Assembly (NCBI GenBank): GCA_965262455.1
Contig: CBDHFH010000003.1
Span: 12,406-76,405, forward strand
Origin: Gammaproteobacteria bacterium
GTDB taxonomy: Bacteria > Pseudomonadota > Gammaproteobacteria > UBA4575
Direction: 5' to 3'
DNA length: 64,000 nt
Made by a program: the position numbers and the translations under genes. The notes under the pieces were generated by a model. That model saw only the letters and a list, made by a program, of their open reading frames with translations. It searched no databases and was not told the DNA's origin. Shown here piece by piece: positions 39,558-64,000 of this stretch; within the stretch, counting starts at the first letter, position 1; each line of letters starts with the position of its first letter.

Positions 39558-39720
39558 TCTTGTTATTGCATTCGAATATACTGTATTAAAAAATAATTTA
39601 AGCTGCGGATTTACTCAATATAAATTCGTCACTTGAATTATTTGTTTGCCTTGTACTTTTATCGCTAGTAACACAGAAATAATTAAACTGAATTAATATA
39701 AAATTTACCCATCAAATCTA

Positions 39721-42334: not shown

Positions 42335-43105
42335 TTAACTCTTGGCAATGCGGGTTCTATTAAACATCAAGCCTGCAATCGCTGATAAGAATAACCAAAT
42401 ACCCGCAGGGATAGGCACAACAGTTGAATTGAATGCATCTACGCCCGCTTCAAACAGCTCTTCACTTAAACCATTGTTAAAAAATAAGCCAAATGTATGC
42501 GAGTCCATAATGCCGGATTGATCAGTAGTCAGTGACATCAACAAGCCATACGCGCCTGTTAAGCCATTATTCAATGTAAAGTCGACATGCTCATGCACAA
42601 CTCCATCAATACCTGCCTGGCCGATGATATTTTCTTCCATGCCAGATAGATAACCGGCAAGGTCTGAAACAGTACTACTAGATATTACTGATGCAGTACT
42701 AGGAAAACCATTATCATCAATTGTTATAGTCGCTGATCCAGGATCCAGAAACTGTGTACCATCCCAGTAAGAGAGTGGGCCTAATATGTTGAATCCTAAA
42801 AATGAACCATTTGCTAGTCTTGACGACAGTGGAAACTCTTCATTATCGAAACCAGGGTCTTCAGTCTTACCATTAGGTTGATCGTCAATTTCAGGGCTAT
42901 TGAAATCACCTTCAAATACGAAAAGACCTGGCTCGGGGAGTTCAAATTCGATTTTTCCGTCTACGATTTCGTACTCGACATCGCTATGAACCTCAGTCGC
43001 TAATGCGCTGTTAATTGGTAATAAGCCAAGCGCACAAATTGCAGCAACCAATGATGAAAAGCACAAAATCTTACTGGTTACTATTGAATAATATTTTCTA
43101 AGCAT
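42335..43105 (-). CDS. secreted protein with a VPxP (VPLPA/PEP-CTERM-like) C-terminal sorting signal; paralog A
   Basis: Signal peptide. C-terminus VPIPAGIWLFLSAIAGLMFNRTRIAKS (motif, TM helix, basic tail). Shares blocks with 45632..46495 (LSYWDG/LQYWDP, HEHVDF/HVHMDW, GAY). The ORF-track start is TTG; the first ATG is at 43105. Confidence 0.6.
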   Translation of the reverse strand: MLRKYYSIVTSKILCFSSLVAAICALGLLPINSALATEVHSDVEYEIVDGKIEFELPEPGLFVFEGDFNSPEIDDQPNGKTEDPGFDNEEFPLSSRLANGSFLGFNILGPLSYWDGTQFLDPGSATITIDDNGFPSTASVISSSTVSDLAGYLSGMEENIIGQAGIDGVVHEHVDFTLNNGLTGAYGLLMSLTTDQSGIMDSHTFGLFFNNGLSEELFEAGVDAFNSTVVPIPAGIWLFLSAIAGLMFNRTRIAKS

Positions 43106-43131
43106 TCTTATCTCTCCCAAATAGACATATA

Positions 43132-43170
43132 ATGATATAACATAGCTTCAACTGCATTATGTTATATCAT
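43132..43170. promoter_or_regulatory. Fur-box-like inverted repeat in the divergent promoter region of paralog A and TBDR1
   Basis: ATGATATAACAT-agcttcaactgcatt-ATGTTATATCAT: 12-bp perfect arms. The left arm plus its 5' flank reads tATAATGATAtaaCAT, close to the GATAATGATAATCATTATC consensus. Confidence 0.4.
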
Positions 43171-43241
43171 AACAATAAAATAAAGCAGTTCCTGTAAACA
43201 AATTTTTAAAGTTACTTTTCAGTAATATTTTGATCGCTCAT

Positions 43242-45608: not shown

Positions 45609-45631
45609 ATCAAAATATTTGGAGACAAATA

Positions 45632-46495
45632 ATGCTACGTTTATTCACTTTAATACTTGGATGCCTACTATCGACAGCTTCCATGGCAATACACCTGGAT
45701 GTTGCTGTTTCCTCTGAAAGTGGCAAATTGAAAACGGATTTTTGTCTAGAGCCGGCACAAGGCGGGATCGCATGTGATGAACTTCCTGTGCTAATACTGC
45801 TAGGCGTCCCTCCGCTCACTACGCCGGTTGATATTGAAACCGGCAAGAATATATTTGTATCTGATTTTAATGATTTTGAAGGTGGGCCGAATGCTGTAGA
45901 CGACCCAGGTTTCATATCAGGCACTTCTAGCGTAAGCAATCTTCCCGCCGGACTGCGCCTAAGCTATGAAGCAGTTGGCCAACTTCAGTACTGGGATCCT
46001 GTAGTTAAAGCATGGACCACTAATGTCCCCGGCTCAACTCGCATCGAGTTATTCGGTGGTATTGAAGTACTCACAGGCCCCCAGTGCGCTCCTTTACTTA
46101 TCTGTTTTCAGCCTGGCAGTACGCTATTTTCTGAAAGCGGCATTTCCGGTACGCCCTCTTTAATTGTTGGCGACACAAATTCTTCGGGTGTACTGCATGT
46201 ACATATGGACTGGTTTTTAGAAGACAGTAGCAATAATCCAGGCGGGCCGGACGGTGCTTACATGATCGAGATGAAATTAACTGCGCAAGGTTATCAGGAT
46301 AGTGAGTCATTCTTTATTATGTTTGCAAAAGAACTGTCTACAGAACAATTTGGCGAGGCTTTAGCTGCAAGAATTTCTTCACAACAAGCTGTGCCTGCAG
46401 TTCAGGTTCCAATGCCACAGCCTTATATATTTATTTTAATAATGTTACTTATAGCCAGTGCTATTTATGTGATTAGATCAAGCAAACATAAATAA
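45632..46495 (+). CDS. secreted protein with a VPxP (VPLPA/PEP-CTERM-like) C-terminal sorting signal; paralog B
   Basis: Signal peptide. C-terminus VPMPQPYIFILIMLLIASAIYVIRSSKHK. Homologous to 42335..43105 over the mature domain. Confidence 0.6.
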   Translation: MLRLFTLILGCLLSTASMAIHLDVAVSSESGKLKTDFCLEPAQGGIACDELPVLILLGVPPLTTPVDIETGKNIFVSDFNDFEGGPNAVDDPGFISGTSSVSNLPAGLRLSYEAVGQLQYWDPVVKAWTTNVPGSTRIELFGGIEVLTGPQCAPLLICFQPGSTLFSESGISGTPSLIVGDTNSSGVLHVHMDWFLEDSSNNPGGPDGAYMIEMKLTAQGYQDSESFFIMFAKELSTEQFGEALAARISSQQAVPAVQVPMPQPYIFILIMLLIASAIYVIRSSKHK

Positions 46496-46568
46496 TCATC
46501 AGTTAATTCGAACCACTAATCGCATGCGCCTAATTTGATCCGATTACTAACTGATTATGATTGGTTAA

Positions 46569-47099
46569 TTATCTTTTCACAGGATATTTTTGTAACTTGC
46601 GTTGCAATGTTCGGCGATGCATATTCAGTGCGCGTGCCGCTGCTGACACATTGCCATCATGCTCAAGCAACACTTTCTGCAAATGCTCCCACTCCAAGCG
46701 CTTAACCGATAGGGTTTTTTCTTCAATAGGTTGCTGCGGATTTGCTTGGTTGTTATGCAACTTGTTAATAATATCCTGCACGGATGCCGGTTTAGTTAAA
46801 TAGTTAATGGCACCAAGCTTAATGGCTTCTACTGTTGTAGCAATACTTGCATATGCAGTAAGCATGACGATTTTAATGTCGGGATTTTTTGCTAATAAAA
46901 ATTTAATTGCATTCAGCCCTGAATCTGCACCAATGCGTAAATCCACGACACCAAACTGCATGGCATGCAGGTTATCAAGTTTTTCCAGTTCGGCAATATT
47001 ATTCACTACACTAGTGGAGTAATCACGTTTTTCGAATGCCCGCGATAACGCGGCACCGAAAGCAACATCATCATCAACAATGACTACATTCATACTCAT
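46569..47099 (-). CDS. RegA/PrrA/ActR-family response regulator (REC + Fis-type HTH)
   Basis: Receiver domain (VVIVDDD..., D in VVDLRIGADSG). C-terminal HTH GNVSAAARALNMHRRTLQRKL. Confidence 0.8.
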   Translation of the reverse strand: MSMNVVIVDDDVAFGAALSRAFEKRDYSTSVVNNIAELEKLDNLHAMQFGVVDLRIGADSGLNAIKFLLAKNPDIKIVMLTAYASIATTVEAIKLGAINYLTKPASVQDIINKLHNNQANPQQPIEEKTLSVKRLEWEHLQKVLLEHDGNVSAAARALNMHRRTLQRKLQKYPVKR

Positions 47100-47101
47100 G
47101 A

Positions 47102-48346
47102 TTACTTTATTGGCTGTAATGGAAGTGTAATTAATGTTTCTACACCTCCAACTGTTCGGTTAGACAATTTTATAGCACCACCCAAGCGCTGAATAATTTC
47201 ATGCGCAAGAAATGCGCCCAGACCAATGCCTTCTGGTTTCGTCGAGTAAGGACGTACACCAATCTCTTTTATCAGCGTTGGATCTATGCCTTCGCCACGA
47301 TCAATAATCGTCAATTGTGCTTGGTCGTTCTGCCAATGCGCTTCAATAGACACCGACTCGGGTGACGCATCTGCAGCGTTATCAAGCAAGTTAATTAACG
47401 CTTTAGATAAAGTTTTACTCGCCACTACTCCAGCGGTGTCCGCGCCATTAAGCTGTCTATTCAGCTGAACATTTGGCCGTGTTTTCTGCCAGCTTGTTAG
47501 TAGTTGATTTATATATTCTTCAAATTTGACTACACCATCACTTTCAACGAGTCCAGTTCCCGCGCTGGTTGACATTTCCGCTAGCGCTTCCTTACAGCGC
47601 GATACTTGCTGCAATAAAATATCAATATCGTCTTGAGTGATTTTATTTTCTTCTAAATCCGAAATAATCAATTGTATCGTGCCTAACGGCGTACCCATCT
47701 CATGTGCGGTACTGGCAGCCAACGCGCCTAAGGAGACAAGTTTTTCATCATTCATTACGCGTTCCTTTGCTAACGCCAATTGATGATCTTTTTGCTGCAA
47801 TGCGGAGCGCATTTTAACTACAAAATAAGCCATCACAGTGGCGCTTAAAACGAAACTCACCCACATGCCTAGTACGTGTAAACCAAATGACTGTTGATGA
47901 TGAGCATGCTCATTAGGGAACCACCACATCAAAAATGAGTATGCAGCGATACTTATTATCGCTAATACCCATACCCAGGACTTCGGCAATAACACTGCAC
48001 TAATCGCCAAAGGCAGTAAGTACATAGAGACAAATGGATTGGTCGCCCCGCCGGAAAAGAAGAACAGCGCAGTCAGGGCACTAATATCTATGAGTAATTG
48101 AATAAATACTTCCGTGTCACTGGCATCAGAGACAAGATTTGCACGATATAGAGTAATGCCGTTGACGGCTGCCAGCCCTGCAATCACTAAGGTCACTGCC
48201 CAGCCATTGAGGGGGAAATCAAATATAAACGTTGCTAGTAAACACGCGACAACCTGGCCGATGATTGAGGCCGCGCGAAACCAGAATAATAATTTCAACG
48301 TATTCTGTTCTCGGGTAATACCCCATGGAAAATTCATTTTTGCCAT
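47102..48346 (-). CDS. RegB/PrrB/ActS-family sensor histidine kinase
   Basis: Six N-terminal TM helices. H-box AASTAHEMGTPLGTI. HATPase motifs (NLLDNAADA, IDRGEGI, GIGLG). 2 nt from the regulator gene. Confidence 0.75.
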   Translation of the reverse strand: MAKMNFPWGITREQNTLKLLFWFRAASIIGQVVACLLATFIFDFPLNGWAVTLVIAGLAAVNGITLYRANLVSDASDTEVFIQLLIDISALTALFFFSGGATNPFVSMYLLPLAISAVLLPKSWVWVLAIISIAAYSFLMWWFPNEHAHHQQSFGLHVLGMWVSFVLSATVMAYFVVKMRSALQQKDHQLALAKERVMNDEKLVSLGALAASTAHEMGTPLGTIQLIISDLEENKITQDDIDILLQQVSRCKEALAEMSTSAGTGLVESDGVVKFEEYINQLLTSWQKTRPNVQLNRQLNGADTAGVVASKTLSKALINLLDNAADASPESVSIEAHWQNDQAQLTIIDRGEGIDPTLIKEIGVRPYSTKPEGIGLGAFLAHEIIQRLGGAIKLSNRTVGGVETLITLPLQPIK

Positions 48347-48511
48347 TATTTATCGTTATTGTTCGTTAGCATCTCAACGCGAGTTGTCGATCATTATAAA
48401 CAAGTCTTTTCTATAACAATCAAATACCTATGCGACATTTTGTCACATTGCTGGAGAGTTAATATTTGCTACTCTGCGCGACATTCGTATCGCCCCCACA
48501 AGAAGGAAGCC

Positions 48512-50638
48512 ATGTCAGTTACAAGGAAGCACACTTACATTTTTATTTCGGCAAGTATACTAGCATCTCTGCATACATCCTGGTTATCTGCCGAACAGCT
48601 TCAGCCGATCTCAGTCACAGACACAGTAATAGAAGATTCCAACTCCGCCAAACCTAAAACAGTTGAGACAGACGTGACTCACATGATGGAATCCGTCCCT
48701 GGTGGTGGTATTCACAGTAATGGGGCAATTAGCGGTCAAACTTATTTTCGTGGGATTTTTGGCCCAAGAATGAATGTGCTGATAGACGATGTTCGTATCC
48801 AGAGTGGTGGCCCCAACTGGATGGACCCTCCTTTACATTACATGCCAAATACTTTGGTTGATTCATTTGAAGTGGAACGCGGCATTGACGCAATCAGTAA
48901 TGGCAGCACCTTAGGAACTACCGTCAAAGTCACCCCTAAGACAAGTAAATTCACCAATACAGACCAATTCAAAGTTAGTAGCGATGTAGAGATCTCCGGT
49001 CACACTGTCGACTCGGGTTATAACGCTGGCGGTGTTGTAGGATTGTCTAACAAACAGCATCGTATACATATTTCTGGCAGTCATGACCAAGGCGATGATT
49101 TTAGTTCTGGTGATGGTGAAATTGATGGCACAGAATATGAACGCAGCAGCATAGGTGCTGGTTACGGTTACCAGATTGGCACACACGAATTATCATTTGA
49201 CGCACGTTATGTCAGTTCAAAAGACTCAGGCACACCTTCATTACCTCTTGACCCAAATTACTTCCACACTCAATTGTACAATGCGAAGTATATAGGCGAA
49301 GTCGCTGACTTTGATGTTGAGCTCACACTATTTCATACTGATGTTGAACATCAGATGAATAACTTTGATCAACGTCCTGCGCCGAATTTTTCTAACATAA
49401 TGCTACCGCCATTTGCAGGCACCGATCGTCGAGTGGTTGATGTAAAGTCTGACGATACTGGTGCCAAGCTCAAGCTAACTCGAGCGATTTCAAATGGGCA
49501 GATTAGTATTGGTGTTAATGGACATAATGCGGATCATGATTCAGTAATTACTGACCCTGACTTTGCGCCATTTGAGGTGGTCAACTTTAATAATGCAGAA
49601 GAAGATCATTTGAGTATATTTACTGAATGGAATGGTAACATTCAGCAGGCAAATGTTGAGATTGGTATGCGTTATCAGCGTGTCAAAACTGATGCTGATG
49701 AAATTTCTATCGTCCCGCCTGCATTAGCCCCTGCTGTCGCATTACGTGATCGATTCAACTCCTCTGATCGATCTAAATCAGATGATAACGTTGACTTTGC
49801 TGCCAAATTAAGTATACCAATTAGCAACGAGGTAGATTTTATTGCGGGCTATGCACGCAAAACTCGATCCCCAACTTACATAGAGCGCTATCAATGGATA
49901 CCTCTTAATGTCAATGCTGGCTTGGGTGATGGCAATAATTACATCGGCAATCCTGACCTGGATGCAGAATGGTCCAATCAATTTGAATTAGGATTCAATT
50001 GGGCAACAGATAAAACCTACTTTAGCCCACGTGCATATTACCAACGCATTAATAACTATATTCAAGGTGTTGCCACTGCAGACACACCAACGGTAATGGT
50101 CAGCATGAATGCCAATGGCGACGCGACGCCACTGCAATTTGAAAACGTCGACGCTGAAATTTATGGTATCGATACTGATTGGGGTTATGAAATTAATCAG
50201 GATTGGATGTTGTCAGGTACCGCTAGCTATGTGCGCGGCAAGCGACGTGATGTCAACGATGATTTATTTCATATTGCTCCGCCACGTACTAGTGCTGCTG
50301 TAACCAGACACTTTGGCAACGGTTCCGCGACCATTGAGGGCGTGCTCGTTGCAAGTCAAACAAAGATTTCTGATGAGTTGACTGACGACCCTAACAACCC
50401 TAATAATAATAACGATGCCACACCTGGATATGGTTTGATAAATTTATATGGCCAATATAGCCCAGCAAGCATGTCAAATCTGACTATTCAAGCAGGCATA
50501 GAAAATTTATTAGACAAAGAATATACCGATCACCTGAATGGCTTTAATCGTGTCGCCGGCAATGGTGTTGATGTTGGTGAACGTCTGCCGGGCCCTGGCA
50601 TCAATGCTTACTTCACCATTGGTATTGCTTTTCAGTAA
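48512..50638 (+). CDS. TonB-dependent outer-membrane receptor
   Basis: Start set at MSVTRKHTYIF, preceded by GGAAG. Plug domain (TYFRGIFGPRMNVLIDDVRIQSGGPNWMDPPLHYMPNTLVDSFEVERG). Barrel ends GIAFQ. Confidence 0.8.
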   Translation: MSVTRKHTYIFISASILASLHTSWLSAEQLQPISVTDTVIEDSNSAKPKTVETDVTHMMESVPGGGIHSNGAISGQTYFRGIFGPRMNVLIDDVRIQSGGPNWMDPPLHYMPNTLVDSFEVERGIDAISNGSTLGTTVKVTPKTSKFTNTDQFKVSSDVEISGHTVDSGYNAGGVVGLSNKQHRIHISGSHDQGDDFSSGDGEIDGTEYERSSIGAGYGYQIGTHELSFDARYVSSKDSGTPSLPLDPNYFHTQLYNAKYIGEVADFDVELTLFHTDVEHQMNNFDQRPAPNFSNIMLPPFAGTDRRVVDVKSDDTGAKLKLTRAISNGQISIGVNGHNADHDSVITDPDFAPFEVVNFNNAEEDHLSIFTEWNGNIQQANVEIGMRYQRVKTDADEISIVPPALAPAVALRDRFNSSDRSKSDDNVDFAAKLSIPISNEVDFIAGYARKTRSPTYIERYQWIPLNVNAGLGDGNNYIGNPDLDAEWSNQFELGFNWATDKTYFSPRAYYQRINNYIQGVATADTPTVMVSMNANGDATPLQFENVDAEIYGIDTDWGYEINQDWMLSGTASYVRGKRRDVNDDLFHIAPPRTSAAVTRHFGNGSATIEGVLVASQTKISDELTDDPNNPNNNNDATPGYGLINLYGQYSPASMSNLTIQAGIENLLDKEYTDHLNGFNRVAGNGVDVGERLPGPGINAYFTIGIAFQ

Positions 50639-53040: not shown

Positions 53041-53307
53041 ATGAAACTATTTATTGCAGCATGCTTGGCCGCACTTGTCACCTTCTCTACTCAAGCATTT
53101 TCTTTGGGCGGCGGGCTAGACCTCAAAGATGGTCTATTCTGGAGCGCTGATCTGAATCGTAACGAACAGCTAGATATTAATGAAGCAAAAGCGATTTATA
53201 ACCTGGGTGATGAGAAAGTATTTGCTAAATACGATACCAGTGGAGAAGGCGTAATCACAAAATTTGAATTTTATGATTATTTGAATAGACGAAGTAGCTC
53301 TGAGTAA
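53041..53307 (+). CDS. small periplasmic EF-hand calcium-binding protein
   Basis: Signal peptide. Two canonical 12-residue EF loops (DLNRNEQLDINE and DTSGEGVITKFE). Confidence 0.6.
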   Translation: MKLFIAACLAALVTFSTQAFSLGGGLDLKDGLFWSADLNRNEQLDINEAKAIYNLGDEKVFAKYDTSGEGVITKFEFYDYLNRRSSSE

Positions 53308-53326
53308 TTCAACTTAAACAAATGCA

Positions 53327-54766
53327 TTAAAGCTCTTTAGAGCGAATCACTATTTGTTTATCAATTTGCATGTCTTCAAAGGTGTAGGGAATTCCCCCTA
53401 CGCCTAATCCTGATTGGCGCAAGCCAGCAAAGGGCATCCAGTCGACACGGAAAGCAGTGTGGTCGTTAATCATCACACTGGCCGCATCCAGACGTTGACT
53501 GCAACGCAAGCCAACATCCAAATTTTGCGTAAGCACTGAGGCTTGAAATGCATATGGCAAGTTATTCGCCTGTGCGATTGCCGCATCGATATCCTCATAT
53601 GCATACACGCATACTGCCGGGCCAAAGATTTCCTGCTGACTGATAATTGATTGCTCGGAGGGATTTAATAATACCGTGCACTCATAACTTGTTTCTGAGA
53701 GAGGCTTACCGCCAAAGACGACACTAGCACCCTGTTTAACTGCGTCATCAACCCACGTTGTAACACGCTCACATTCGCGCGGTCGAATTAGCGGCCCAAC
53801 TTCTGTTGTTGCTAAAGTTGGGTCACCGATGTTCATGGCTTCTGCAAACGATGCTAAACGCTGCGCCACCTCATTTGCCATTGCCTTTGGTGCAAACACT
53901 CTTTGCACTGACACACAGACTTGCCCAGCATGATAATAACCACCCTTGGCAATTAATGGCAATGTGTCATCAAGATCTGCACTTTCATCAATAATCACGG
54001 GTGCCACGCCGCCATGCTCTAATGCACAACGTGCTCCTGCAGCTAATTTTGAACGCAGCATCCAGCCGACTTTGGCACTACCGATAAATGAGAAGAAACT
54101 TACGCGTTCATCCGTAACAAGTTTTTCTGCCACGCTTAGATCACTGGTGACACATGCCTGGCAGTATTCTTCAGGCAAGCCGGCATCCCTTAAAATTTGT
54201 ACAAAACGAAAACAAGATAACGGTGTATCTTCAGCCGGTTTCACTATCACGGGACAACCCGCGGCAACGGCAGGGCCCACTTGATGCACAATTAAATTCA
54301 ATGGATGGTTGAAAGCACTGACAGCCACTACCACACCAATCGGTTCTTTACGCGTAAACGCTAAACGATTTTGAGAAGCTGCGTTTAGCCCCATAGGTAT
54401 TTCACGTCCACTTTCAGTACGCAATACTTCAATACAGTTTTTCACCCCATCAATTGCACGTGCCACTTCAACACGCGAATCCATTAATGGCTTACCACCC
54501 TCTCGCGCAGCTTCTATCGCGAGTGTTTCTGCTTGGGCTTGCATGAGTTGCGCAGTCTTTTCTAATACTTCAATACGCTTGGGGATCGGCAACCACCGTT
54601 CGCGATCACGATAAATAGCATATGCAGTTTGCAGCGCATGTTCAGCATCATCAATTGAGATGGTAGGAACATCACTAATAGGTGATAAATCCCATGGAGC
54701 AACAACAGTGATAGTATTGCCGTCACCATGTGCACCTGGAATCATTAAATTGAATGTTTCACTCAT
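53327..54766 (-). CDS. NAD(P)-dependent aldehyde dehydrogenase
   Basis: 479 aa with ALDH motifs (catalytic Cys region QVCVSVQRV, Glu region ALEHGG, GxPxNxP-like). Confidence 0.85.
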   Translation of the reverse strand: MSETFNLMIPGAHGDGNTITVVAPWDLSPISDVPTISIDDAEHALQTAYAIYRDRERWLPIPKRIEVLEKTAQLMQAQAETLAIEAAREGGKPLMDSRVEVARAIDGVKNCIEVLRTESGREIPMGLNAASQNRLAFTRKEPIGVVVAVSAFNHPLNLIVHQVGPAVAAGCPVIVKPAEDTPLSCFRFVQILRDAGLPEEYCQACVTSDLSVAEKLVTDERVSFFSFIGSAKVGWMLRSKLAAGARCALEHGGVAPVIIDESADLDDTLPLIAKGGYYHAGQVCVSVQRVFAPKAMANEVAQRLASFAEAMNIGDPTLATTEVGPLIRPRECERVTTWVDDAVKQGASVVFGGKPLSETSYECTVLLNPSEQSIISQQEIFGPAVCVYAYEDIDAAIAQANNLPYAFQASVLTQNLDVGLRCSQRLDAASVMINDHTAFRVDWMPFAGLRQSGLGVGGIPYTFEDMQIDKQIVIRSKEL

Positions 54767-54798
54767 GATCAGTATTTAAAACGTGTGACACTAACAGT

Positions 54799-56463
54799 TT
54801 ATTCTTCACCACCATTGCCTGTCACCAGGCGACTAAGTTCTTCAGTTAATTTCATATTTTCTGAGTAATCTACCGGACAATCAACGATTACAACTGTGTC
54901 ATCTGCAATTGCTTGCTTCAACGTAGGCACTAATTCTTCAGCACTATTGACGCGATAGCCTTTGGCTCCAAAGCTCTCGGCATATTTAACAAAATCAGGA
55001 TTTGTAAATTCAATATGACTTGATCGCCCCAACTTACGCATTTGATGCCATTTAATTAAGCCATACTCGCTGTCATTCCATACCAGGATCACAATCGCGA
55101 CGCCAATACGCAATGCTGTTTCGATTTCTTGTGAATTCATCATGAATCCTGCATCACCTGTTACAGTTAGCGCAGTGATATTTGGATTAACTAACTTCGC
55201 AGCAATAGCACCTGGTACGCCAATACCCATGGAGGCAAAGCCGTTTGAAATAATGCATGTATTTGGGCGTTCAGCTTGATACATTCGCGCCATCCACATT
55301 TTATGTGCGCCGACATCAGAAATAACAACATCTTCAGGATTCAGCACCGCACGTAAATCACAAATAATCTTTTGTGGTTTAATTGGGAAACATGTGTCTG
55401 CTGCGTGCTCATTTAATTCATTCACAATCGTATCACGCAGTTCATCGTTAAACCCACCGATATGTGGTTTAGCAATTTTAGCAATCTCTTGTAAACCAGA
55501 TTTAATATCTCCAGTTACGCCAACCTCAAGTATGTAGTGCTCATCCACTTCTGCTGGGCTCATGTCAATGTGAATAATCTTTTTATCTTTATACTTGTGC
55601 CAAATGTGTGGATGGAACTCGACCATGTCAAAGCCGACACAAATAATCACATCTGATTTTTCAAACCCGCAGGCAACATAATCTTTTGCTTGCAGACCCA
55701 CTGTACCTAACGATAATTTATGTGAGAATGGAATTGCACCTTTGGCCATAAATGTGGTGGCTACCGCTATGTTTAACTGCTCAGCAAATTCCACTAACTG
55801 ACTAGACGCATTATTTCTAATCACACCGTTGCCCGCCATGATAATGGGGTAACTGGCTTGGCTAATTACCTCAGCTGCTTGTTGAATTTTTTCTATGGGT
55901 GGCACAGGTTCTAATGGAGACTGCACTTTTAGTGGATGTTTTTCTACCGGCATTTTTGCGCCCGCAATATTTTCCGGGAAATCAATAAAACTGCCGCCCG
56001 GCTTTTCCATTTGTGCATCTTTAAATGCTTTACGCACAATTTCAGGAATTATTTGTGGTGCGCGTATCTGAGTGCTGTATTTTGAAATAGGCTCAAACAA
56101 ATTCACCAAATCCAATACCTGATGGCTTTCCTTATGCATACGAGTGGTTGCACCTTGCCCGGCGATGGCTACTATTGGTGCACGATCCATATCGGCATCG
56201 GCAAAACCCGTGACTAAATTGGTTGCGCCCGGACCCAATGTCGCTAAACACACACCGGCTTTACCTGTAAGCCGGCCGTAGACATCGGCCATAAATGCGG
56301 CGCCTTGTTCATGCCGTGTAGTAATAAATTTAATCTTGCTATCTAATAGTGCATCCATGACATCGAGATTTTCTTCGCCAGGAATACCAAAAATATACTC
56401 AACCCCTTCATTTTCAAGGCATTTAATAAACAGTTCAGATGCTTTCATAAGCTCCTCTCTCAC
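54799..56463 (-). CDS. acetolactate synthase-like thiamine-pyrophosphate enzyme (catabolic AlsS type)
   Basis: TPP-enzyme N-terminal, central and C-terminal domains (GIPGEENLDVMDAL, RHEQGAAFMADVYGRLTGK, GDAGFMMNSQE). Confidence 0.75.
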   Translation of the reverse strand: MREELMKASELFIKCLENEGVEYIFGIPGEENLDVMDALLDSKIKFITTRHEQGAAFMADVYGRLTGKAGVCLATLGPGATNLVTGFADADMDRAPIVAIAGQGATTRMHKESHQVLDLVNLFEPISKYSTQIRAPQIIPEIVRKAFKDAQMEKPGGSFIDFPENIAGAKMPVEKHPLKVQSPLEPVPPIEKIQQAAEVISQASYPIIMAGNGVIRNNASSQLVEFAEQLNIAVATTFMAKGAIPFSHKLSLGTVGLQAKDYVACGFEKSDVIICVGFDMVEFHPHIWHKYKDKKIIHIDMSPAEVDEHYILEVGVTGDIKSGLQEIAKIAKPHIGGFNDELRDTIVNELNEHAADTCFPIKPQKIICDLRAVLNPEDVVISDVGAHKMWMARMYQAERPNTCIISNGFASMGIGVPGAIAAKLVNPNITALTVTGDAGFMMNSQEIETALRIGVAIVILVWNDSEYGLIKWHQMRKLGRSSHIEFTNPDFVKYAESFGAKGYRVNSAEELVPTLKQAIADDTVVIVDCPVDYSENMKLTEELSRLVTGNGGEE

Positions 56464-56626
56464 CAGCTAACAATGTTAAGATGAATCAACTTCAAACTGA
56501 CTTATAATTGACTATTTCTACATATCGGCAAATTGGATATTTATTTAACTAAATGTTCAGATAAATCACTCAATCACAAGCATTTTTATACCCTAGCATA
56601 GATCGCCAATTATTATCCCAAATGAT

Positions 56627-57604
56627 ATGAACCATACGACCGATGAACGTGCTGCGTTATTACACGCATGGATTAGTCGACATTATCCGATAGTAGAAAA
56701 TTCATTCATGAGTGTTTCAGGCGATGCAAGTTTTCGTCGCTATTTTAGATTTACAGTCGAACAAACTGATGGATCAGACAATCTCAGTCTGATCGCAGTT
56801 GATGCTCCGCCTGAATTAGAAAATAGCCAGCCATTTCTGGACATTGCGCAATTACTCGCTACCAATAATTTATCGGTACCGATTATTTATGAGCATGATT
56901 TACAGCAAGGCTTTTATATTCAACAAGATTTTGGTGATCAATTATTACTTGATTTATTAAACGGCAATTCAGTTGATAGTTTTTACCAACAGGCAATGCA
57001 AGACATTGCACACCTACAGCATGTCGAGTGTGATCAGTTGCCCTTGTATAACTCACAACTGCTGCATAGAGAAATGAATTTATTCACTGAGTGGTACCTA
57101 GCAAATCACTTAAATGTCACGCTTAATGAAATAGAAAAAAAATGTTTACAGGCTTGTTATCAATTATTAGAGGCTAATGCTGTCGAACAACCACAAGTAT
57201 TTGTTCATCGGGATTATCATTCAAGAAATCTAATGGTGCTGGATAACAACACACTTGGCATGATTGATTTCCAGGATGCAGTGAAGGGCCCGATTACTTA
57301 TGACTTAGTATCATTGCTTAGAGACTGTTACATCGCTTGGCCACAGGATAAAATTAATCAATGGTTAAGTTATTTTCATACCTATATTGTTAGTGCGATT
57401 CCAATCGATACTTTCACGCGTTGGTTTGATCTTATGGGTATGCAACGCCACCTTAAAGCAACCGGTATATTTTGTCGCTTACACTATCGTGACGACAAGC
57501 CGGGTTATCTTAATGACATCCCCCGCACGATGAATTATATCAAACAAGTTAGCGCAAAGTATCCTGAACTGAACGAGTTTAATCAGCTAGTGAGCAAGTT
57601 GTGA
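56627..57604 (+). CDS. amgK: N-acetylmuramate/N-acetylglucosamine anomeric kinase (aminoglycoside-phosphotransferase fold)
   Basis: APH/ChoK fold (VHRDYHSRNLMV, IDFQDA). Overlaps and precedes a MurU-like gene. Confidence 0.65.
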   Translation: MNHTTDERAALLHAWISRHYPIVENSFMSVSGDASFRRYFRFTVEQTDGSDNLSLIAVDAPPELENSQPFLDIAQLLATNNLSVPIIYEHDLQQGFYIQQDFGDQLLLDLLNGNSVDSFYQQAMQDIAHLQHVECDQLPLYNSQLLHREMNLFTEWYLANHLNVTLNEIEKKCLQACYQLLEANAVEQPQVFVHRDYHSRNLMVLDNNTLGMIDFQDAVKGPITYDLVSLLRDCYIAWPQDKINQWLSYFHTYIVSAIPIDTFTRWFDLMGMQRHLKATGIFCRLHYRDDKPGYLNDIPRTMNYIKQVSAKYPELNEFNQLVSKL

Positions 57605-58272
57605 AAGCCATGATATTAGCTGCAGGGCGAGGCGCTCGACTAAGTCCGCTCACCGATAAAATCCCCAAGCCTTTAGTCAAAGTCGGTCATGATACTCTTA
57701 TTGAGCATCATATAAGGAAGCTTGCAAAAGCAGGCTTCGAGAGCATTGTGATTAACACTGCGCATTTAGGCGAAAAAATTCGCAGTCACCTTGGAGACGG
57801 AGAACAATACGGTATAGCCATCGAATATTCCGATGAAGGCGAGCAGGCACTAGAAACCGCAGGCGGCATTGCATACGCACTGCCACTACTGGGTAAGCAA
57901 CCATTTTTAGCGATTAGTTCAGATGTGTATTGCGATATTCCCTTTGATACACATTTCCAGCTAAAGCAGAGTCGCATGCACTTAATTATGGTGAACAATC
58001 CGCCACATCACCCCAATGGAGATTTTAATGCGCAAGAAATTAATCTCGATAGTGCACCAGAGCTACGCTTTACTTACAGTGGCATCGCTTACATTAACCC
58101 TAACTTATTTACTCATGAGAAAAAAACTTACCCACTTATTGACGTCATTAAGCAATGCATAGAAGAAAATACCATTAGTGCCGACTTATATGAGGGCAAA
58201 TGGATTGATGTAGGGACTATCGATCGAGTGCATGCAGCCAATAAAGCAGCAATGAAAATTGGAGCACATTAG
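57601..58272 (+). CDS. murU: N-acetylmuramate alpha-1-phosphate uridylyltransferase
   Basis: Nucleotidyltransferase motif MKAMILAAGRGARLSPLTDKIPKPL. 223 aa. 4-nt overlap with amgK. Confidence 0.7.
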   Translation: MKAMILAAGRGARLSPLTDKIPKPLVKVGHDTLIEHHIRKLAKAGFESIVINTAHLGEKIRSHLGDGEQYGIAIEYSDEGEQALETAGGIAYALPLLGKQPFLAISSDVYCDIPFDTHFQLKQSRMHLIMVNNPPHHPNGDFNAQEINLDSAPELRFTYSGIAYINPNLFTHEKKTYPLIDVIKQCIEENTISADLYEGKWIDVGTIDRVHAANKAAMKIGAH

Positions 58273-58295
58273 CCCCAAATAGGTCAATATATAAT

Positions 58296-58320
58296 GACCG
58301 CTTTCGACCCAAAGCAGACA
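58296..58320. repeat. possible degenerate copy of the 25-bp island repeat (12 of the first 12 nt identical, then divergent)
   Basis: AATGACCGCTTTcgacccaaagcagac, versus AATGACCGCTTTtgcgctgaaaacggact at 61820. Lies 20 nt after the murU stop, at the left edge of the AT-rich islet. Confidence 0.3.
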
Positions 58321-58381
58321 TTTATGAGTCATTACAATATTATGTATTTTTGTTATTAAATTCTTTTTAAAGTCGAATAAT

Positions 58382-59290
58382 ATGAATAAATATATACTAA
58401 TTGTACTTGGGATATTTATTCTTACTGGGTGTGGCGAATCCTATACAGTTCCTAGAGCTACATTTCATATTGATTTAAATAATCCCGATGAAGCAAAAAA
58501 ACTCTCTTTACAAATGAATGAGTTTTTGCTTTCTGAGGGGTTTGAGGATTTAGGAATTTATGAAGAAATGATTGATTTACTCTCGCACAATGGTGCAAGA
58601 GATGAATACAATATGAAGGACATATATGACGACCAGATTCAGAGAACTAGATTAGAGAGAAACTATATAAACAGAACTAGAAAAATAGATGTGATGATAA
58701 CCGACTACTCTGATCCTGAACTAAAAAAGCGATATGTCAATTATCCTACATCTGAATCTACAATTACTGACCTACCATCACTGGAAGTAAATATTCATAA
58801 TATGCGTCCTGGTGGTTTCTCTGCTGATGCGCTTCTTTTTTATGAAAAATTTCATTCGCTTATTAAAAGCAAACATGACGGTGATATAAATATTGTGTTT
58901 AGCCCACCAAAATCTGATCAAAAAGAATTTTATAGGATTAGCGCAAAGAACTTTATTGGAAAAATTTTTAATTGGTTAGTTGTATTTGCCGTGTCGATTA
59001 CAATATTTGGTTTAATAATTATCAAATTGTTGAAACTAACCAAACTAAATATATTGCAAAAACGAGCAATATTCGGTATTTCTGGCTCAATCTTATCAAC
59101 TCCCTTGCCATTTCCGATTGCTACAATATTTACAACCTTATTACCGAGTGTGTTAGCAATACCTCTAATTGGATCAGACTATTTCTCAAGAATAGCTGAT
59201 GTGGGAATTAAATCATTTTTAGTTTGCTTTTCCTTATGCGCGATACTATCGGTACTTCTCATTAAAGAAAAGAAAACAGCTGGCGAATGA
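58382..59290 (+). CDS. lipoprotein with a C-terminal polytopic membrane domain
   Basis: Lipobox LTGC. Soluble N-terminal region. Four hydrophobic helices in the C-terminal third. Very AT-rich codon usage. Confidence 0.55.
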   Translation: MNKYILIVLGIFILTGCGESYTVPRATFHIDLNNPDEAKKLSLQMNEFLLSEGFEDLGIYEEMIDLLSHNGARDEYNMKDIYDDQIQRTRLERNYINRTRKIDVMITDYSDPELKKRYVNYPTSESTITDLPSLEVNIHNMRPGGFSADALLFYEKFHSLIKSKHDGDINIVFSPPKSDQKEFYRISAKNFIGKIFNWLVVFAVSITIFGLIIIKLLKLTKLNILQKRAIFGISGSILSTPLPFPIATIFTTLLPSVLAIPLIGSDYFSRIADVGIKSFLVCFSLCAILSVLLIKEKKTAGE

Positions 59291-59462
59291 CCTCTAATGC
59301 GCCGATAGGCGACATTAAACTTCTAGAAAAAATATAATTAAAACATAGATTTATATATATGCTATTAACATCATATAAAATATTTAATATTTTTGATAAA
59401 TACTTAAAGAAAAGTATATATACTAAAAGAGTACTCTTAATCTGATCACATGGTGAATTCTG

Positions 59463-61823
59463 ATGCGTTGCATTAACTTGTCACCGACTTATTACGCAAT
59501 ACCCATACAATCTTGTACTATTAGACTATTAAAGTTATGTGCATTTTCTATTTTATTTTTTTTATTAGCCGTCCCCTCATTTGCAGTAGATACTGACAAC
59601 GACGGTATTTCTGACGCTACAGAATTGTTAATTGGTAGTGATCCCTATGTTGGTGAAACGTCAACATTAAGCTTACATACTGAGGATAATAATCCGATTC
59701 TAGAAGGTTGGACAGGTAACTTATCAGCTGGGATGACTACCTCGGGTATTCAAAATGATTTAGGATTTGATTCTTGGGGTATTGGTACAATATTTGTAGG
59801 TAGCAGTGGTGGGTATACTCAAACACTCAACTCAACTCAACAATATGGATGGGCTTTGATTGCAAGAATTAGAGCTTCTGAGTTTACAAGTCCACCAGGT
59901 AATAATCCTCTAGTCTTCACACAGTACTCTACAGGCTCTTCAAGATACTCTTTAACATTCTCTGGCAATAATTTTACTGATACAACTGTTTATACTAATG
60001 ATGGGCGTTCCCATACCCTTACCGGAGAAGGAAGCGTATACCATTTATACCAAATTATTTTTAATCCCTTTACACAATCTGCTCAAGTATATATAAATGA
60101 TAGTCTGATTTTTGATGATTATGCGGGTAATGAAGTTGCATCTACTCAAGAAATATTTTTTGGTAGTGCGACAACTACCGCAGTTGGTGGAGGTCGTTAC
60201 AACTTAGTTCAGTTTGTTACTATTAATGGGGATGCCGATAGAGATGGTGATGGTCTAACTGAACACGAAGAGTTAACGCTCAATACAAATCCACTATCAA
60301 TGGATACTGATGGTGATGGATTTAATGATAGAGTTGAAGTTAACTTTGGAACTGACCCGTTATCTGAGTTAAACAACCCAGTACTAACTAAAGTTGTTCC
60401 CAACGATGTTGATGATGATGATCGATTTGGCGGAAGTGTCGCACTATCGGCTGATACTGCTATTGTAAGCGCACTTCAAAATAGCAATGGTCTTGGTGCA
60501 GCATATGTTTACACTCGAAGTGGTAATAATTGGATTGAACAGCAAAAACTTGTTCCAAGTGGAAACTTCGTGGGTTTTGGATCGAGTGTGGATATTGATG
60601 GGGATACAGTGATCGTTGGTGCTGGAGCAAATGAAGAAGCCTATGTCTTCACTAGAACTGGTTCGACCTGGAGTGAACAGCAAACACTTACTTCGAGTGA
60701 TATGTTTTTTGGTGATAATTTTGGCTTTAGTGTTGGCATCTCTGGTGATACAGCAGTCGTTGGTGCGTATTTAGATAATGAAAATGGGATCCAGTCCGGG
60801 TCAGCATATGTATTTACTCGCAATGGGTCACTTTGGAGTGAGCAACAAAAGCTAACAGCGAGTGATGCTGCCTCAGGAGATCTGTTTGGTAACTGTATCG
60901 ATGTGTCAGGTGATACAGTTGTTGTTTGTGCAATTAATGATGATGATAATGGTGTCAATTCAGGATCTATTTATGCATTTACTCGCAATGGATTAGTCTG
61001 GAATGAACAGCAAAAGTTAACTGCAAGTGATGCCGCTATTTTAGACAGCTTTGGTAGTGATGTTGCAATTGAGAACGACACTATTGTGGTTGGTGCAAAT
61101 TCAACAGATGAAAATGAATTTAATTCTGGTGCAGCCTATGTCTTCACCCGCAGTGGAGTAAATTGGAGTGAACAGCAAAAGTTAACTGCAAGTGATGCTG
61201 ATGCTAATGATAAGTTTGGAAACAGTGTTTCAATTTCCGGCAACAAGATCATCATAGGTTCAGCATTTGATGATCTAAGTACAAGTAATTCCGGCTCAGC
61301 CTATCTTTTTATTAGGACAAGCAATTCATGGGAAGAGGTAACTAAACTAGTAGCTATTGATGCTGATAGTGAAGACTTATTTGGTTGGGATGTAGCACTA
61401 TCTAATGACATTGTTATAAATGGTGCATTCTCTGATGAGGCGAATGGAATGAACTCTGGCTCTGCTTATTTATTTGACATGGACATTGACGATGACAATT
61501 TGATCAACGAAATAGAAATACAATTAGGAACAGATCAATTCTTATCAGATAGCGATGAAGATGGCTTGAATGATTTCAATGAACTTAATATTGATGGTGA
61601 CCCTACAAACTATACAGTTGGAATTGATACTGATCCAAATAATAGTGATACAGACAACGATGGGTTTAGTGACAGTGAAGAAGTAAATTCAGGCTCTGAC
61701 CCAAATGACCCATTATCTATACCAAGTATTCCCAGTGTCAAAGTGCCATCACCTTCTTGGTTATTCCATGTATTAGTCTTAACATTACTTATTATTGCTT
61801 TCAGACAAATTAGTGCTCAATGA
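59463..61823 (+). CDS. large surface protein: TSP3-type Ca-binding repeats + LamG-like region + 7 FG-GAP beta-propeller repeats + VPxP C-terminal sorting signal
   Basis: DxDxDGxxD motifs (DTDNDGISD, DRDGDGLTE, DTDGDGFND, DTDNDGFSD). Seven roughly 55-aa repeats FGxSVxIxGDTxVVGA...GSAYVFTRxGxxWxEQQKLTASD. C-terminus VKVPSPSWLFHVLVLTLLIIAFRQ. Confidence 0.75.
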   Translation: MRCINLSPTYYAIPIQSCTIRLLKLCAFSILFFLLAVPSFAVDTDNDGISDATELLIGSDPYVGETSTLSLHTEDNNPILEGWTGNLSAGMTTSGIQNDLGFDSWGIGTIFVGSSGGYTQTLNSTQQYGWALIARIRASEFTSPPGNNPLVFTQYSTGSSRYSLTFSGNNFTDTTVYTNDGRSHTLTGEGSVYHLYQIIFNPFTQSAQVYINDSLIFDDYAGNEVASTQEIFFGSATTTAVGGGRYNLVQFVTINGDADRDGDGLTEHEELTLNTNPLSMDTDGDGFNDRVEVNFGTDPLSELNNPVLTKVVPNDVDDDDRFGGSVALSADTAIVSALQNSNGLGAAYVYTRSGNNWIEQQKLVPSGNFVGFGSSVDIDGDTVIVGAGANEEAYVFTRTGSTWSEQQTLTSSDMFFGDNFGFSVGISGDTAVVGAYLDNENGIQSGSAYVFTRNGSLWSEQQKLTASDAASGDLFGNCIDVSGDTVVVCAINDDDNGVNSGSIYAFTRNGLVWNEQQKLTASDAAILDSFGSDVAIENDTIVVGANSTDENEFNSGAAYVFTRSGVNWSEQQKLTASDADANDKFGNSVSISGNKIIIGSAFDDLSTSNSGSAYLFIRTSNSWEEVTKLVAIDADSEDLFGWDVALSNDIVINGAFSDEANGMNSGSAYLFDMDIDDDNLINEIEIQLGTDQFLSDSDEDGLNDFNELNIDGDPTNYTVGIDTDPNNSDTDNDGFSDSEEVNSGSDPNDPLSIPSIPSVKVPSPSWLFHVLVLTLLIIAFRQISAQ
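60400..61490 (+). repeat. tandem in-frame roughly 165-bp coding repeats (FG-GAP blades) with high nucleotide identity between units
   Basis: For example tttactcgcaatgg...gagcaacaaaagctaacagcgagtgatgc, versus tttactcgcaatgg...gaacagcaaaagttaactgcaagtgatgc, versus cttcacccgcagtgg...gaacagcaaaagttaactgcaagtgatgc. Confidence 0.7.
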
Positions 61824-61847
61824 CCGCTTTTGCGCTGAAAACGGACT
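61823..61847. repeat. 25-bp direct repeat, copy 1 (ACCGCTTTTGCGCTGAAAACGGACT); overlaps the stop codon of the FG-GAP gene
   Basis: Identical 25-mer recurs at 62801..62825. Contains an imperfect hairpin CCGcTTTT-gcgctg-AAAACGG. Confidence 0.85.
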
Positions 61848-62000
61848 TAATTTGAGTAGGTTCAATAAATTTATAACTGAGGATACTTTCTTAATAGATT
61901 AGCGTGTACATTACAAAGTGATATTAATAGTTTCATTTTTCATTGAGAAGTTTGTAAGAGGTATCGTTGCTACATAGAATTACACTAAATTTTAAAAACT

Positions 62001-62540
62001 GTGGAATATAAAAAGGATGCCCAATTGAACTTATCCGTGCCAATACCGTTAAATGAAATGGAGAGACTAGCCGCAGTTAGAGATCTAGGCTCTCATACTT
62101 CAATTAATAGTGATAAATTTGACCAAATTACTTATCACACTGCAAAACAACTAAATACACCTTTCTGCTTCTTATCAGTAATTTATAGTTCAAAAATAAA
62201 ATTTTTATCTTCCTTTGGTTCAGAAGTTAAAGAAATTCCTCGTGAATTTGGGATTTGCACACATGTAATCGCCGAGATTAAAACAAGAAATCACTTTGAG
62301 CGTTTATATGAAATATCTAATATGCTCGACGATCATAAGTTTAGGGATAACCCTCTAGTGTGTAACTCACCAGAAGTGCGTTCTTATCTGGGCTATACAC
62401 TGCAATCAGCAAATGGTTGCAACCTAGGGACATTGTGTGTAATGGATTCTTCTCCCAGAAATTTTAGTAACGAGAATAAATTTAATTTAGCTGTCTTGGG
62501 TGAGATAGCAAACAAATTATTACTCGGTTCAATCAACTAA
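62001..62540 (+). CDS. stand-alone GAF domain protein
   Basis: GAF-like signature (ERLAAVRDLG ... DNPLV ... GCNLGTLCVMDSSPRNFS). 179 aa. A later start (MERLAAV) is possible. Confidence 0.65.
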   Translation: MEYKKDAQLNLSVPIPLNEMERLAAVRDLGSHTSINSDKFDQITYHTAKQLNTPFCFLSVIYSSKIKFLSSFGSEVKEIPREFGICTHVIAEIKTRNHFERLYEISNMLDDHKFRDNPLVCNSPEVRSYLGYTLQSANGCNLGTLCVMDSSPRNFSNENKFNLAVLGEIANKLLLGSIN

Positions 62541-62565
62541 ATAAAAAACCAAATAGTTTCAATCA

Positions 62566-62775
62566 ATGATAAGCAAAGATAATGAAAACTCTGATCAAGT
62601 ATTTGATCTTATTGATCGGATTAGATCCACTGAAATAGAGCTTATGAAATCTGCTCTATTGAAAGCGAATGGCGACCCAAATGTTGTAGCGCAAAGCTTT
62701 GGTGTAGAAGTATCGTATGTCTTTAGTAAAACACGAGAGTTAGACCTTGAGGAGTACTTACAGATTAATATATAA
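62566..62775 (+). CDS. small Fis/NtrC-C-terminal-type HTH protein
   Basis: 69 aa. A C-terminal helix-turn-helix-like segment (IELMKSALLKANGDPNVVAQSFGVEVSYVFSK) resembles the DNA-binding tail of Fis/sigma54 activators. Confidence 0.45.
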   Translation: MISKDNENSDQVFDLIDRIRSTEIELMKSALLKANGDPNVVAQSFGVEVSYVFSKTRELDLEEYLQINI

Positions 62776-62800
62776 ATATACTTCAACATATCTATTAATC

Positions 62801-62825
62801 ACCGCTTTTGCGCTGAAAACGGACT
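62801..62825. repeat. 25-bp direct repeat, copy 2 (ACCGCTTTTGCGCTGAAAACGGACT)
   Basis: Exact match to 61823..61847. Lies 26 nt after the HTH gene stop. Confidence 0.85.
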
Positions 62826-62936
62826 CTTGCTAGAAATTCATGCAAATTTATCTCTTAATAATGATTGCACGTACAGATTAATAATAAACAAAGTATAAAT
62901 TTAATTATATATATTCAGTTACGATTTCCTATTTAG

Positions 62937-63872
62937 CTATTGCCGACTCTCTGCGGCTTGTTGATCCGCGTGATATGACGACCGCACCATGGGTCCACTA
63001 GCGACATTGGCAAATCCCATTGCAAGCCCCTCTTCTTTCAGTATGTTGAATTCTTCGGGTGTTACATAACGCATCACAGGTAAATGATGTTTTGATGGTT
63101 GCAGATATTGACCGAGCGTTAACATATCGCATTGATGTTCACGCAGGTCGCGCATGACTTGCCTGACTTCATCTAACTGTTCGCCTAAACCCAGCATAAG
63201 ACCTGACTTGGTAGGGATATGAGGATTGTCTAGTTTGAATTTGTTAAGCAAGTCGAGCGACCATTGATAATCTGACCCTGGCCGGGCTTGTTTATATAAT
63301 CGCGGAACCGTTTCTAGATTATGGTTAAACACATCAGGCAACTGTGGTTGTAACGCTGTTAATGCTCTGTCCATTCGGCCACGAAAGTCTGGTACAAGCA
63401 CTTCTATTTTTATATCTGGATTCAATCTGCGTACGTGTTCGATACATTTCTGAAAATGTGTCGCACCACCATCCTTTAGATCATCTCGATCCACTGATGT
63501 AATAACCACATAATTAAGCTGCATTAATTTAATTGTTTCTGCCAGCTTACGCGGTTCTTCTTCATCAGGAGGTTGAGGCCGACCATGAGCGACATCGCAA
63601 AATGGACAACGGCGTGTACATAAGTCGCCAAGTATCATGAATGTCGCCGTACCATGGGCATAACATTCATTTAAGTTAGGACAAGACGCTTCTTCGCATA
63701 CGGTATATAAATCATGTTGTTTAATAAGCTTTTTTAAATGCGAAACTTTGTCAGAGTTAGTAATCTTGATACGTATCCAATCCGGCTTGCGCAATACAGC
63801 ATCTGACGGTAGTACTTTTATGGGAATGCGCGAGACTTTTTCCGCACCTCGTTGTTTTTGATGACTACCCAT
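62937..63872 (-). CDS. lipA: lipoyl synthase
   Basis: Radical-SAM CxxxCxxC (CTRRCPFC) plus the N-terminal auxiliary-cluster Cys motif ([12 protein letters not shown]). 311 aa. Confidence 0.9.
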
Positions 63873-64000
63873 ATGATATTAAACAATATAATTAATAAAA
63901 TTCATCTTGTATAAACGTTTCAAATGATAACGCTACATCATTAAGTGATTGTTGTATACCTAATTGCTTTAGCTGTATAACTTTCATGTTGGTTAACCCA

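Follow-up and report, generated by a model that had tools for sequence, protein, structure and literature searches.

A probably acquired, repeat-bordered AT-rich islet between murU and lipA of a gammaproteobacterium encodes a multidomain, adhesin-like protein with a VPxP tail

In the neisserial minimal mobile elements the whole-gene content between two conserved genes is variable, and in integrons and clusters of attC sites lacking integrases (CALINs) small co-oriented genes each carry an imperfectly palindromic site that often overlaps the stop codon. The 64 kb stretch of gammaproteobacterial DNA analyzed here (the window; positions are numbered from its first nucleotide) contains between its murU and lipA genes an AT-rich islet of 4,664 bp (58273-62936) that can be compared with both. 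It has in common with the neisserial elements a variable junction (murU/lipA), conserved flanks and a lack of mobility genes, but those elements are not defined by a repeat that follows each gene. With the integrons and CALINs it shares the small co-oriented genes with their sites, the occurrence of one unit in different arrays and homology that ends at the sites; its repeat, called R below, is however ~29 nt long as against the 57-141 nt of attC, is conserved in sequence, and is without RYYYAAC/GTTRRRY cores (as judged by reading of the sequence). The largest gene of the islet, ORF786, encodes a protein whose C-terminus recalls a third kind of system, the protein-sorting signals with a tripartite layout of motif, transmembrane (TM) helix and basic, Arg-rich residues (bioRxiv 10.1101/2023.06.07.544157). 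Proteins of the PEP-CTERM class are also found beside TonB-dependent transporters, as in the ZepA zinc system (PMC10957091).

The open reading frames (ORFs) of the region lie in the order amgK, murU, ORF302, ORF786, ORF179, ORF69, lipA, which agrees with an earlier, sequence-only reading of this DNA, and they and the islet are as follows:

56627-57604, + strand: amgK, left core flank; 263 bits on NCBIfam NF045759 (below its cutoff of 550) and a Pfam APH match; syntenic in all relatives
57601-58272, + strand: murU, left core flank; 270 bits on NF045761 (cutoff 250); homology to the relatives stops at 58244
58273-62936: the AT-rich inserted islet, delimited by its GC content and by its replacement with 47-163 bp in relatives
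58382-59290, + strand: ORF302, lipoprotein whose N-terminal part is an alpha/beta domain and whose C-terminal part has three TM helices; it belongs to a conserved family that is unannotated
59463-61823, + strand: ORF786, predicted secreted multidomain surface protein of 786 aa; a singleton at 90% identity
62001-62540, + strand: ORF179, stand-alone GAF-domain protein of 179 aa; 21.1 bits on Pfam GAF (gathering score 22.4) and a match to PDB 4zmu_A
62566-62775, + strand: ORF69, a conserved gene of 69 aa that accompanies the GAF gene; its orthologs (81% and 51% identity) always lie directly downstream of GAF genes
62937-63872, - strand: lipA, right core flank; 446 bits on TIGR00510, above its cutoff; homology to the relatives restarts at 62947

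The earlier identification of murU and lipA as the two flanks is borne out, as both pass the curated cutoffs. A LipA scan of species-representative genomes returned, among the matches listed, relatives of at most 71% identity, all of them distant; murU and lipA are convergent neighbors in 7 of 80 gammaproteobacterial loci among these matches, with gaps from 78 bp (the distant locus L044) to 7.8 kb, and none of the seven has an islet gene between them. Closer relatives came from searches for homologs of MurU and of the GAF protein. In the closest of these (L084-L087, MurU 80% identical) a spacer of 85 bp separates murU from lipA within the order ArgA-like, EF-hand, Aldedh, thiamine pyrophosphate (TPP) enzyme, AmgK, MurU, spacer, LipA, LipB, DUF6498. 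By blastn, window 53076-58244 corresponds to L084 3406-8584 (75.7%) and window 62947-64000 to L084 8699-9755 (76%), and only 114 bp separate the two blocks in L084. The gene order on both sides is kept in L084-L087, L088, L094 and L095/L096. The murU-lipA spacer is 47 bp in L094 (an NCBI metagenome-assembled genome, 70%) and 163 bp in L095/L096 (Joint Genome Institute (JGI) data, 71%), and in L088 (73%) a single, different gene of 236 aa stands between murU and lipA. The islet is therefore a lineage-specific insertion, since relatives that share the flanking order have only 47-163 bp between murU and lipA, and the view that it was acquired and is not ancestral withstands the comparison of synteny. 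The murU/lipA junction is itself variable, being empty in four lineages and of variable content in two. No plasmid sequence and no Rfam family matches the DNA of the islet.

Two observations on the junction in the relatives may be recorded here. The L088 gene (10758-11468) encodes a 236-aa secreted protein with no family match and was rejected as a relative of ORF302, to which it is unrelated; its GC content of 0.371 is below the 0.403 of its surroundings, which may mean that this junction received a second insertion independently. The empty spacers of L095 (5437-5599) and L096 (3468-3630) have an 18-nt direct repeat of their own in two copies, GTCATGACATGACGATTA, which is unrelated to R except for an ATGAC core.

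The base composition of the islet is distinct from that of the remainder of the window. Its GC content is 0.351 against 0.420 for the rest, and the GC content at third codon positions (GC3) of its four genes is 0.257, 0.245, 0.289 and 0.300, compared with 0.374±0.038 for the 50 other window genes; these values are 2-3.4 standard deviations under the window mean, and only two other window genes are equally low. The drop after murU had been noticed from the sequence and is real, but the accompanying description of intergenic stretches that are "almost pure A/T" was an overstatement, because the islet spacers (20-29% GC) are matched by spacers outside it (29% at 56464-56626 and 26% at 63873-64000). 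The strong positive GC skew at 60.4-61.6 kb is due to the coding units of the FG-GAP propeller of ORF786 (below), which repeat with a period of 165 nt. Elsewhere in the window there is a second AT-rich dip (GC 0.33 at 25-26 kb) at an OmpA-like beta-barrel gene (25338-25979, - strand, GC3 0.29), and the TonB-dependent receptor (TBDR) gene at 43230-45608 also has a low GC3 (0.27); no R element is near either gene.

The islet is a mosaic of three independent units, namely ORF302, ORF786 and the ORF179-ORF69 pair, since the GAF pair and the ORF302 homologs each occur by themselves in other contexts. ORF179 matches PDB 4zmu_A, a GAF-GGDEF structure, with an E-value of 1.1e-11 over aa 11-156; it has homologs of 59-88% identity in other genomes, and the more distant of its homologs carry PF01590 or PF13185. 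A gene of 55-94 aa stands directly after the ORF179 homolog in every case, and it is an ORF69 ortholog wherever DNA could be compared. The pair is found in five neighborhoods: between ORF786 and lipA in the window, between tRNA-Thr and a VCPO gene in L081, between comM and a DUF1499 region in L082/L083, between a SnoaL gene and a 205-aa gene in L092/L093, and after a MICAH gene on the contig of protein P0130. The DNA of these pairs is 74-81% identical to window 61819-62811, and L081 and L088, the latter with another gene at its murU/lipA site, are from one assembly. ORF69 has no Pfam match at E<=10 and no relevant PDB match, and a reading of it as a Fis-type helix-turn-helix (HTH) protein is unsupported, as hhalign against the HTH_8 domain of the RegA-like protein of the window gave a probability of 0.9% and the resemblance is by eye only. 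Thus, of the "GAF/HTH pair" that had been proposed the GAF half stands on the 4zmu_A match and the HTH half finds no support from Pfam, hhalign or PDB. In L081 (9629-9810) a GAF plus 68-aa unit starts 88 nt downstream of the tRNA-Thr(UGU) gene, and an R-like core, AATGACCGCTTTCGACC, lies between them.

ORF302 begins with a lipobox (LTGC) whose Cys17 is present in 90% or more of 20 aligned family members, and ends with three TM segments, as expected of the lipoprotein with a polytopic tail that was originally described. An exhaustive HMMER search gave 75 representative homologs, the best 43% identical over its full length, and the motifs RPGGFS and TPLPFP are conserved in the family in addition to Cys17. 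The AlphaFold2 (AF2) model (predicted local distance difference test score (pLDDT) 87.5) has an alpha/beta domain and membrane helices and no significant fold match in the PDB. In metagenomic loci found with a 5-sequence alignment, the homologs adjoin an IS110 transposase (L089) or a NERD-kinase-helicase region with a TBDR (L091), and none lies beside FG-GAP genes. A functional ORF302-ORF786 pair was therefore rejected, the ORF302 homologs having other neighbors, and the notion that the islet is one adhesin module fails on this and on the occurrence of the GAF pair without ORF786 in four other contexts. The L091 homolog lies in a defense-island-like context (26-4870), ~3 kb downstream of a gene for a 1,614-aa NERD-protein kinase-superfamily 1 (SF1) helicase protein, and three spacers of that locus contain weak R-like hairpins (6838, 9010 and 10567).

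The units of the islet are bordered by copies of the R repeat, which are located as follows:

58293-58321, + strand: R1, degenerate ~29-nt repeat, 21 nt after the murU stop codon; its core AATGACCGCTTTCGACC is identical in L081; 9/11 arm positions complementary
59286-59314, + strand: R2, degenerate repeat; its TGA is the ORF302 stop codon; 8/11 arm positions complementary
61819-61847, + strand: R3 repeat; its TGA is the ORF786 stop codon; homology to L092 starts here
62797-62825, + strand: R4 repeat, 22 nt after the ORF69 stop codon; homology to L092 ends inside it

R starts with AATGACCGCT, often overlaps the upstream stop codon, and has the consensus AATGACCGCTT-N8-9-AAGCrGaCATT, an imperfect inverted repeat with 11-nt arms and an 8-9-nt spacer; both ORF302 and ORF786 use the TGA within its AATGACC as their stop codon. 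R3 and R4 are identical at 28/29 positions (the chance expectation is 0), and R1 and R2 are the next-best R matches in the whole window. The unrelated 4 kb L092 contig (GC 0.345) has the arrangement gene1-R-SnoaL-R-GAF-69aa-R-205aa-R-DUF4437, with four R copies that each lie directly after a gene. Window 61819-62811 is 80.9% identical to L092 684-1680, from the first base of R3 to the middle of R4, and the two sequences are unrelated outside these limits. R repeats mark unit borders both in the islet and in the L092 array. Weaker copies are found beside the GAF unit in L081 and L082. A seven-copy R model, run on the window together with all relatives and 80 unrelated gammaproteobacterial loci (1.55 Mb in total), gave nothing else at E<0.01; there is no R in the empty murU/lipA sites or the core DNA of the relatives, and the exact R3 core has no match in the JGI metagenomes. 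Neither a T-tract nor an Rfam family match was found for R, and there are no terminator-like sites at the gene ends.

ORF786 is a new combination of familiar extracellular modules, arranged from its N-terminus as follows:

59463-59585, + strand: signal peptide, aa 1-41 (...AVPSFA|VD), with a hydrophobic segment at aa 22-40; as read from the sequence
59589-59654 and 60231-60368, + strand: DxDxDG (thrombospondin type 3, TSP3) segments on either side of the lectin domain; motif reading
59814-60212, + strand: ConA-like lectin domain, aa 118-250; Pfam PF09264 (Sial-lect-inser)
60378-61490, + strand: seven-bladed FG-GAP beta-propeller, aa 306-676; FG-GAP_2 x7, 165-nt DNA periodicity, AF2 and Foldseek
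61548-61712, + strand: C-terminal DxDxDG (TSP3-type) Ca-binding motif segments; Pfam TSP3_bac and motif reading
61737-61820, + strand: tail, consisting of VKVPSPSW, a 16-aa hydrophobic helix (pLDDT 71-88), a single Arg and QISAQ

Pfam finds seven FG-GAP_2 units (E 2.5e-109) and four TSP3_bac matches, and five DxDxDG motifs are located at aa 43, 257, 281, 696 and 729. In the AF2 model, which covers aa 292-786, the propeller has 28 strands at pLDDT 94-98, the TSP3 region is of low confidence and a terminal helix is present; the best PDB matches of the propeller in Foldseek are integrin alpha4, alpha5 and alphaX (E about 1e-16 to 2e-16, probability 1.00), although it is only ~15% identical to the integrin alpha propellers and, while it has seven FG-GAP blades as they do, it has no beta-subunit partner. 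Pfam thus finds both the TSP3 repeats and the integrin-alpha-like propeller that had been recognized from the sequence, and for the propeller the structure prediction proposed at that time gives the expected fold in AF2 and Foldseek. The "LamG-like" assignment was about right, since aa 118-250 match PF09264 (the Vibrio cholerae sialidase lectin domain, ConA-type) with 27.6 bits (E 2.8e-6), the gathering score being 25.8. On the other hand, "giant" exaggerates a protein of 786 aa, and the surface-layer (S-layer) reading was dropped, as no S-layer-type domain is present. No PDB sequence relative was found with phmmer. Nearly all of the 5,971 database matches of ORF786 are to the propeller only (~46% of the query), and such FG-GAP_2 propellers carry many other anchors, e.g. 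MYXO-CTERM and dockerin-like ends. The TSP3 Ca-binding repeats match Myxococcus MtsD and CglD locally. Only one match, P0032, shares the propeller-TSP3-tail arrangement (the C-terminal half), and the full order TSP3-lectin-TSP3-propeller-TSP3-VPxP tail is unique to ORF786 in a set of 5.8 billion proteins.

The terminal VKVPSPSW-helix-Arg signal is present on ORF786 as had been reported, and the count of three such proteins in the window is also correct, the other two being paralogs (31% identity, E 2e-12) encoded at 42335-43120 (- strand) and 45632-46495 (+ strand), on the two sides of a receptor gene:

42335-46495: ZnuD-like TBDR (43230-45608; 337 bits on NF038289, under the cutoff) between two paralogous secreted proteins with VPxP+TM+basic tails

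The C-terminus of each of the three proteins consists of V-P-x-P followed by an aromatic residue, a hydrophobic helix and one or more basic residues. The P0032 tail, VNVPLPLW-TM-RRVRR, has the motif V-x-V-P-x-P-x-W in common with ORF786, and the model for VPLPA-CTERM, the variant paired with exosortase D, gives 21.3 bits with the paralog at 42335-43120 (TIGR03370, cutoff 25.35). With PEP-CTERM/exosortase systems the group shares a signal peptide, a Pro-containing motif, a TM helix, basic residue(s) and several tails per genome, and judged from these sequences a shared exosortase-type pathway for the three tails is plausible and the most economical reading. The ZnuD-like group is followed by a RegB/RegA-like two-component pair and a copper-receptor-like TBDR (42335-50638 in all), a neighborhood that resembles in its layout those of the PEP-CTERM exoprotein ZepA and its TonB-dependent transporter in zinc uptake (PMC10957091).

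How might these parts fit together? We think it probable that the islet as a whole is a lineage-specific, horizontally acquired mosaic in the convergent murU/lipA junction, made of three co-oriented, R-bordered units, and that ORF786 is a surface adhesin-like protein with a sorted tail. On this explanation the N-terminal signal peptide would direct ORF786 into the Sec pathway for export, the TSP3 repeats would bind Ca2+ and act as spacers, and its lectin and propeller domains would bind carbohydrate or protein ligands outside the cell, which would make it an adhesin or matrix protein. The VPxP-helix-Arg tail would hold it in the inner membrane until a PEP-CTERM-type (exosortase-like) enzyme encoded outside the window cleaves the tail and so releases or attaches the protein, and the same enzyme may serve the two TBDR-linked paralogs.

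Several results weigh against this explanation. The islet has two of the usual marks of a genomic island, absence from relatives that keep the flanks and a deviating composition, and has no integrase, tRNA or insertion sequence (IS) at its border; there is no tRNA in the window, and no integrase, transposase or IS was found next to the islet among the ORFs scanned or read. Because the nearest relative is only ~76% identical in DNA, the insertion carries no date and some room is left for multiple losses. R1 and R2 are degenerate, the palindromy of R reaches significance in R1, R2 and a single L082 copy but not in R3, R4 or Ra-Rc, and R was rejected as a stable RNA hairpin, as it folds no better than shuffled sequences (z -1.8 to +0.2). 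The adhesin role is argued from domain analogy only, and FG-GAP_2 propellers occur with varied anchors and partners. Unlike a PEP-CTERM signal, the ORF786 tail has VPSP in place of PEP (VPSPSW is without Glu) and only one Arg, where P0032 has the full RRVRR; its last 40 aa match no NCBIfam sorting-domain model even at E<=10, and the P0032 tail reaches only 13.8 bits on VPAMP-CTERM (cutoff 32). Lastly, there is no exosortase among the polytopic proteins of the 64 kb window, which are an ABC permease, a RegB-like kinase and a 235-aa uncharacterized protein.

The alternatives concern the history of the locus, the nature of R and the fate of the tail. It could be supposed that the locus held the four genes ancestrally, that the relatives lost them independently, and that the low GC content of these genes comes from weak expression or selection. 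The distance of the nearest relative, which allows no within-species comparison, and the presence of a gene at the L088 site leave room for this, but the L088 gene is unrelated to ORF302, murU and lipA are adjacent in four relative lineages and in the distant L044, the GAF pair is at other loci in the relatives (including another contig of the L088 assembly), and all four islet genes are in the low tail of GC3; this history is disfavored by parsimony and we regard it as very improbable. R could be either a recombination site or a 3' transcript element. In size and layout the arms and spacer of R correspond to the core site of a tyrosine recombinase, and R might be the recombination site of a so far undescribed cassette system that resembles the integrons and belongs to an uncultured gammaproteobacterial clade, with its recombinase encoded elsewhere, in which case [GAF+69-aa], [ORF302] and [ORF786] would have been captured successively at R and the islet and L092 would be two arrays; no IntI or attI was found in the window, the L092 contig is only 4 kb long, and we consider such a system unlikely.

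We give a better chance, if still somewhat less than an even one, to the possibility that R copies are 3'-end transcript elements (terminator-like sequences, stabilizing hairpins, or elements of the repetitive extragenic palindromic (REP) type) that travel with accessory genes, and that the islet arrived by homologous recombination in its flanks after DNA uptake. This would agree with the position of R directly after stop codons in the orientation of the genes, with the empty murU/lipA sites that are free of R, with the lack of a recombinase near the islet and with murU/lipA contents that differ by lineage (empty, the L088 gene, the islet), which is the pattern of minimal mobile elements. It is harder to reconcile with an R that has no T-tract and an RNA fold no better than that of shuffled sequences, that is missing from the ~59 kb of window core and from the core of the relatives, unlike REPs, which lie in core intergenic regions, and at which the window-L092 homology starts exactly at one copy and ends inside the next. 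As for the tail of ORF786, it may be a membrane anchor and nothing else, in which case the protein would stay tethered in the inner membrane on its periplasmic side, would undergo no processing of the sortase type and would be unconnected with the TBDR-associated paralogs. The single basic residue after the helix, the failure of sorting-domain models to match and the lack of a sorting enzyme in the window would fit such an anchor; we nevertheless find it rather doubtful, as V-x-V-P-x-P-x-W is kept between ORF786 and P0032 though the linker that precedes it differs, VPxP, helix and basic residues recur in two unrelated proteins 12-16 kb away (one with its 21 bits on VPLPA-CTERM), and its lectin, TSP3 and integrin-like propeller domains are of kinds that typically belong to extracellular proteins.

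Some features of the window that lie away from the islet are also of note. At 28238-40578 there is a serine-cycle/tetrahydromethanopterin (H4MPT) cluster of one-carbon (C1) metabolism with Ftr (PF01913/PF02741), FolD-like, phosphoenolpyruvate (PEP) carboxylase, Mpt_N dehydrogenase, serine-glyoxylate aminotransferase-like, malyl-CoA lyase-like, malate thiokinase-like and hydroxypyruvate reductase-like genes, several of them identified by reading of translations only; this cluster suggests that the source of the DNA, an uncultured gammaproteobacterium, is methylotrophic. Two adjacent ORFs of 148 and 154 aa at 7550-8528 (- strand) read as the N- and C-terminal halves of an ADP-heptose:lipopolysaccharide (LPS) heptosyltransferase; a frameshift, a pseudogene or an error of sequencing could account for the split. 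An uncharacterized pair at 19076-20487 consists of a DUF6627 gene and, directly after it, a gene for a C39-like peptidase/tetratricopeptide repeat (TPR) lipoprotein.

What does the islet mean for this group of bacteria? It is of the ordinary, small acquired kind and brings with it a new combination of domains, and it identifies the convergent murU/lipA junction as a variable site in this clade. If R is a recombination site, it would represent a new way of assembling gene-cassette arrays outside the classical integrons. Finally, three proteins within 64 kb share a VPxP-helix-basic tail that is missed by current sorting-signal models, and such tails may be either a divergent VPLPA/PEP-CTERM signal or a new class.

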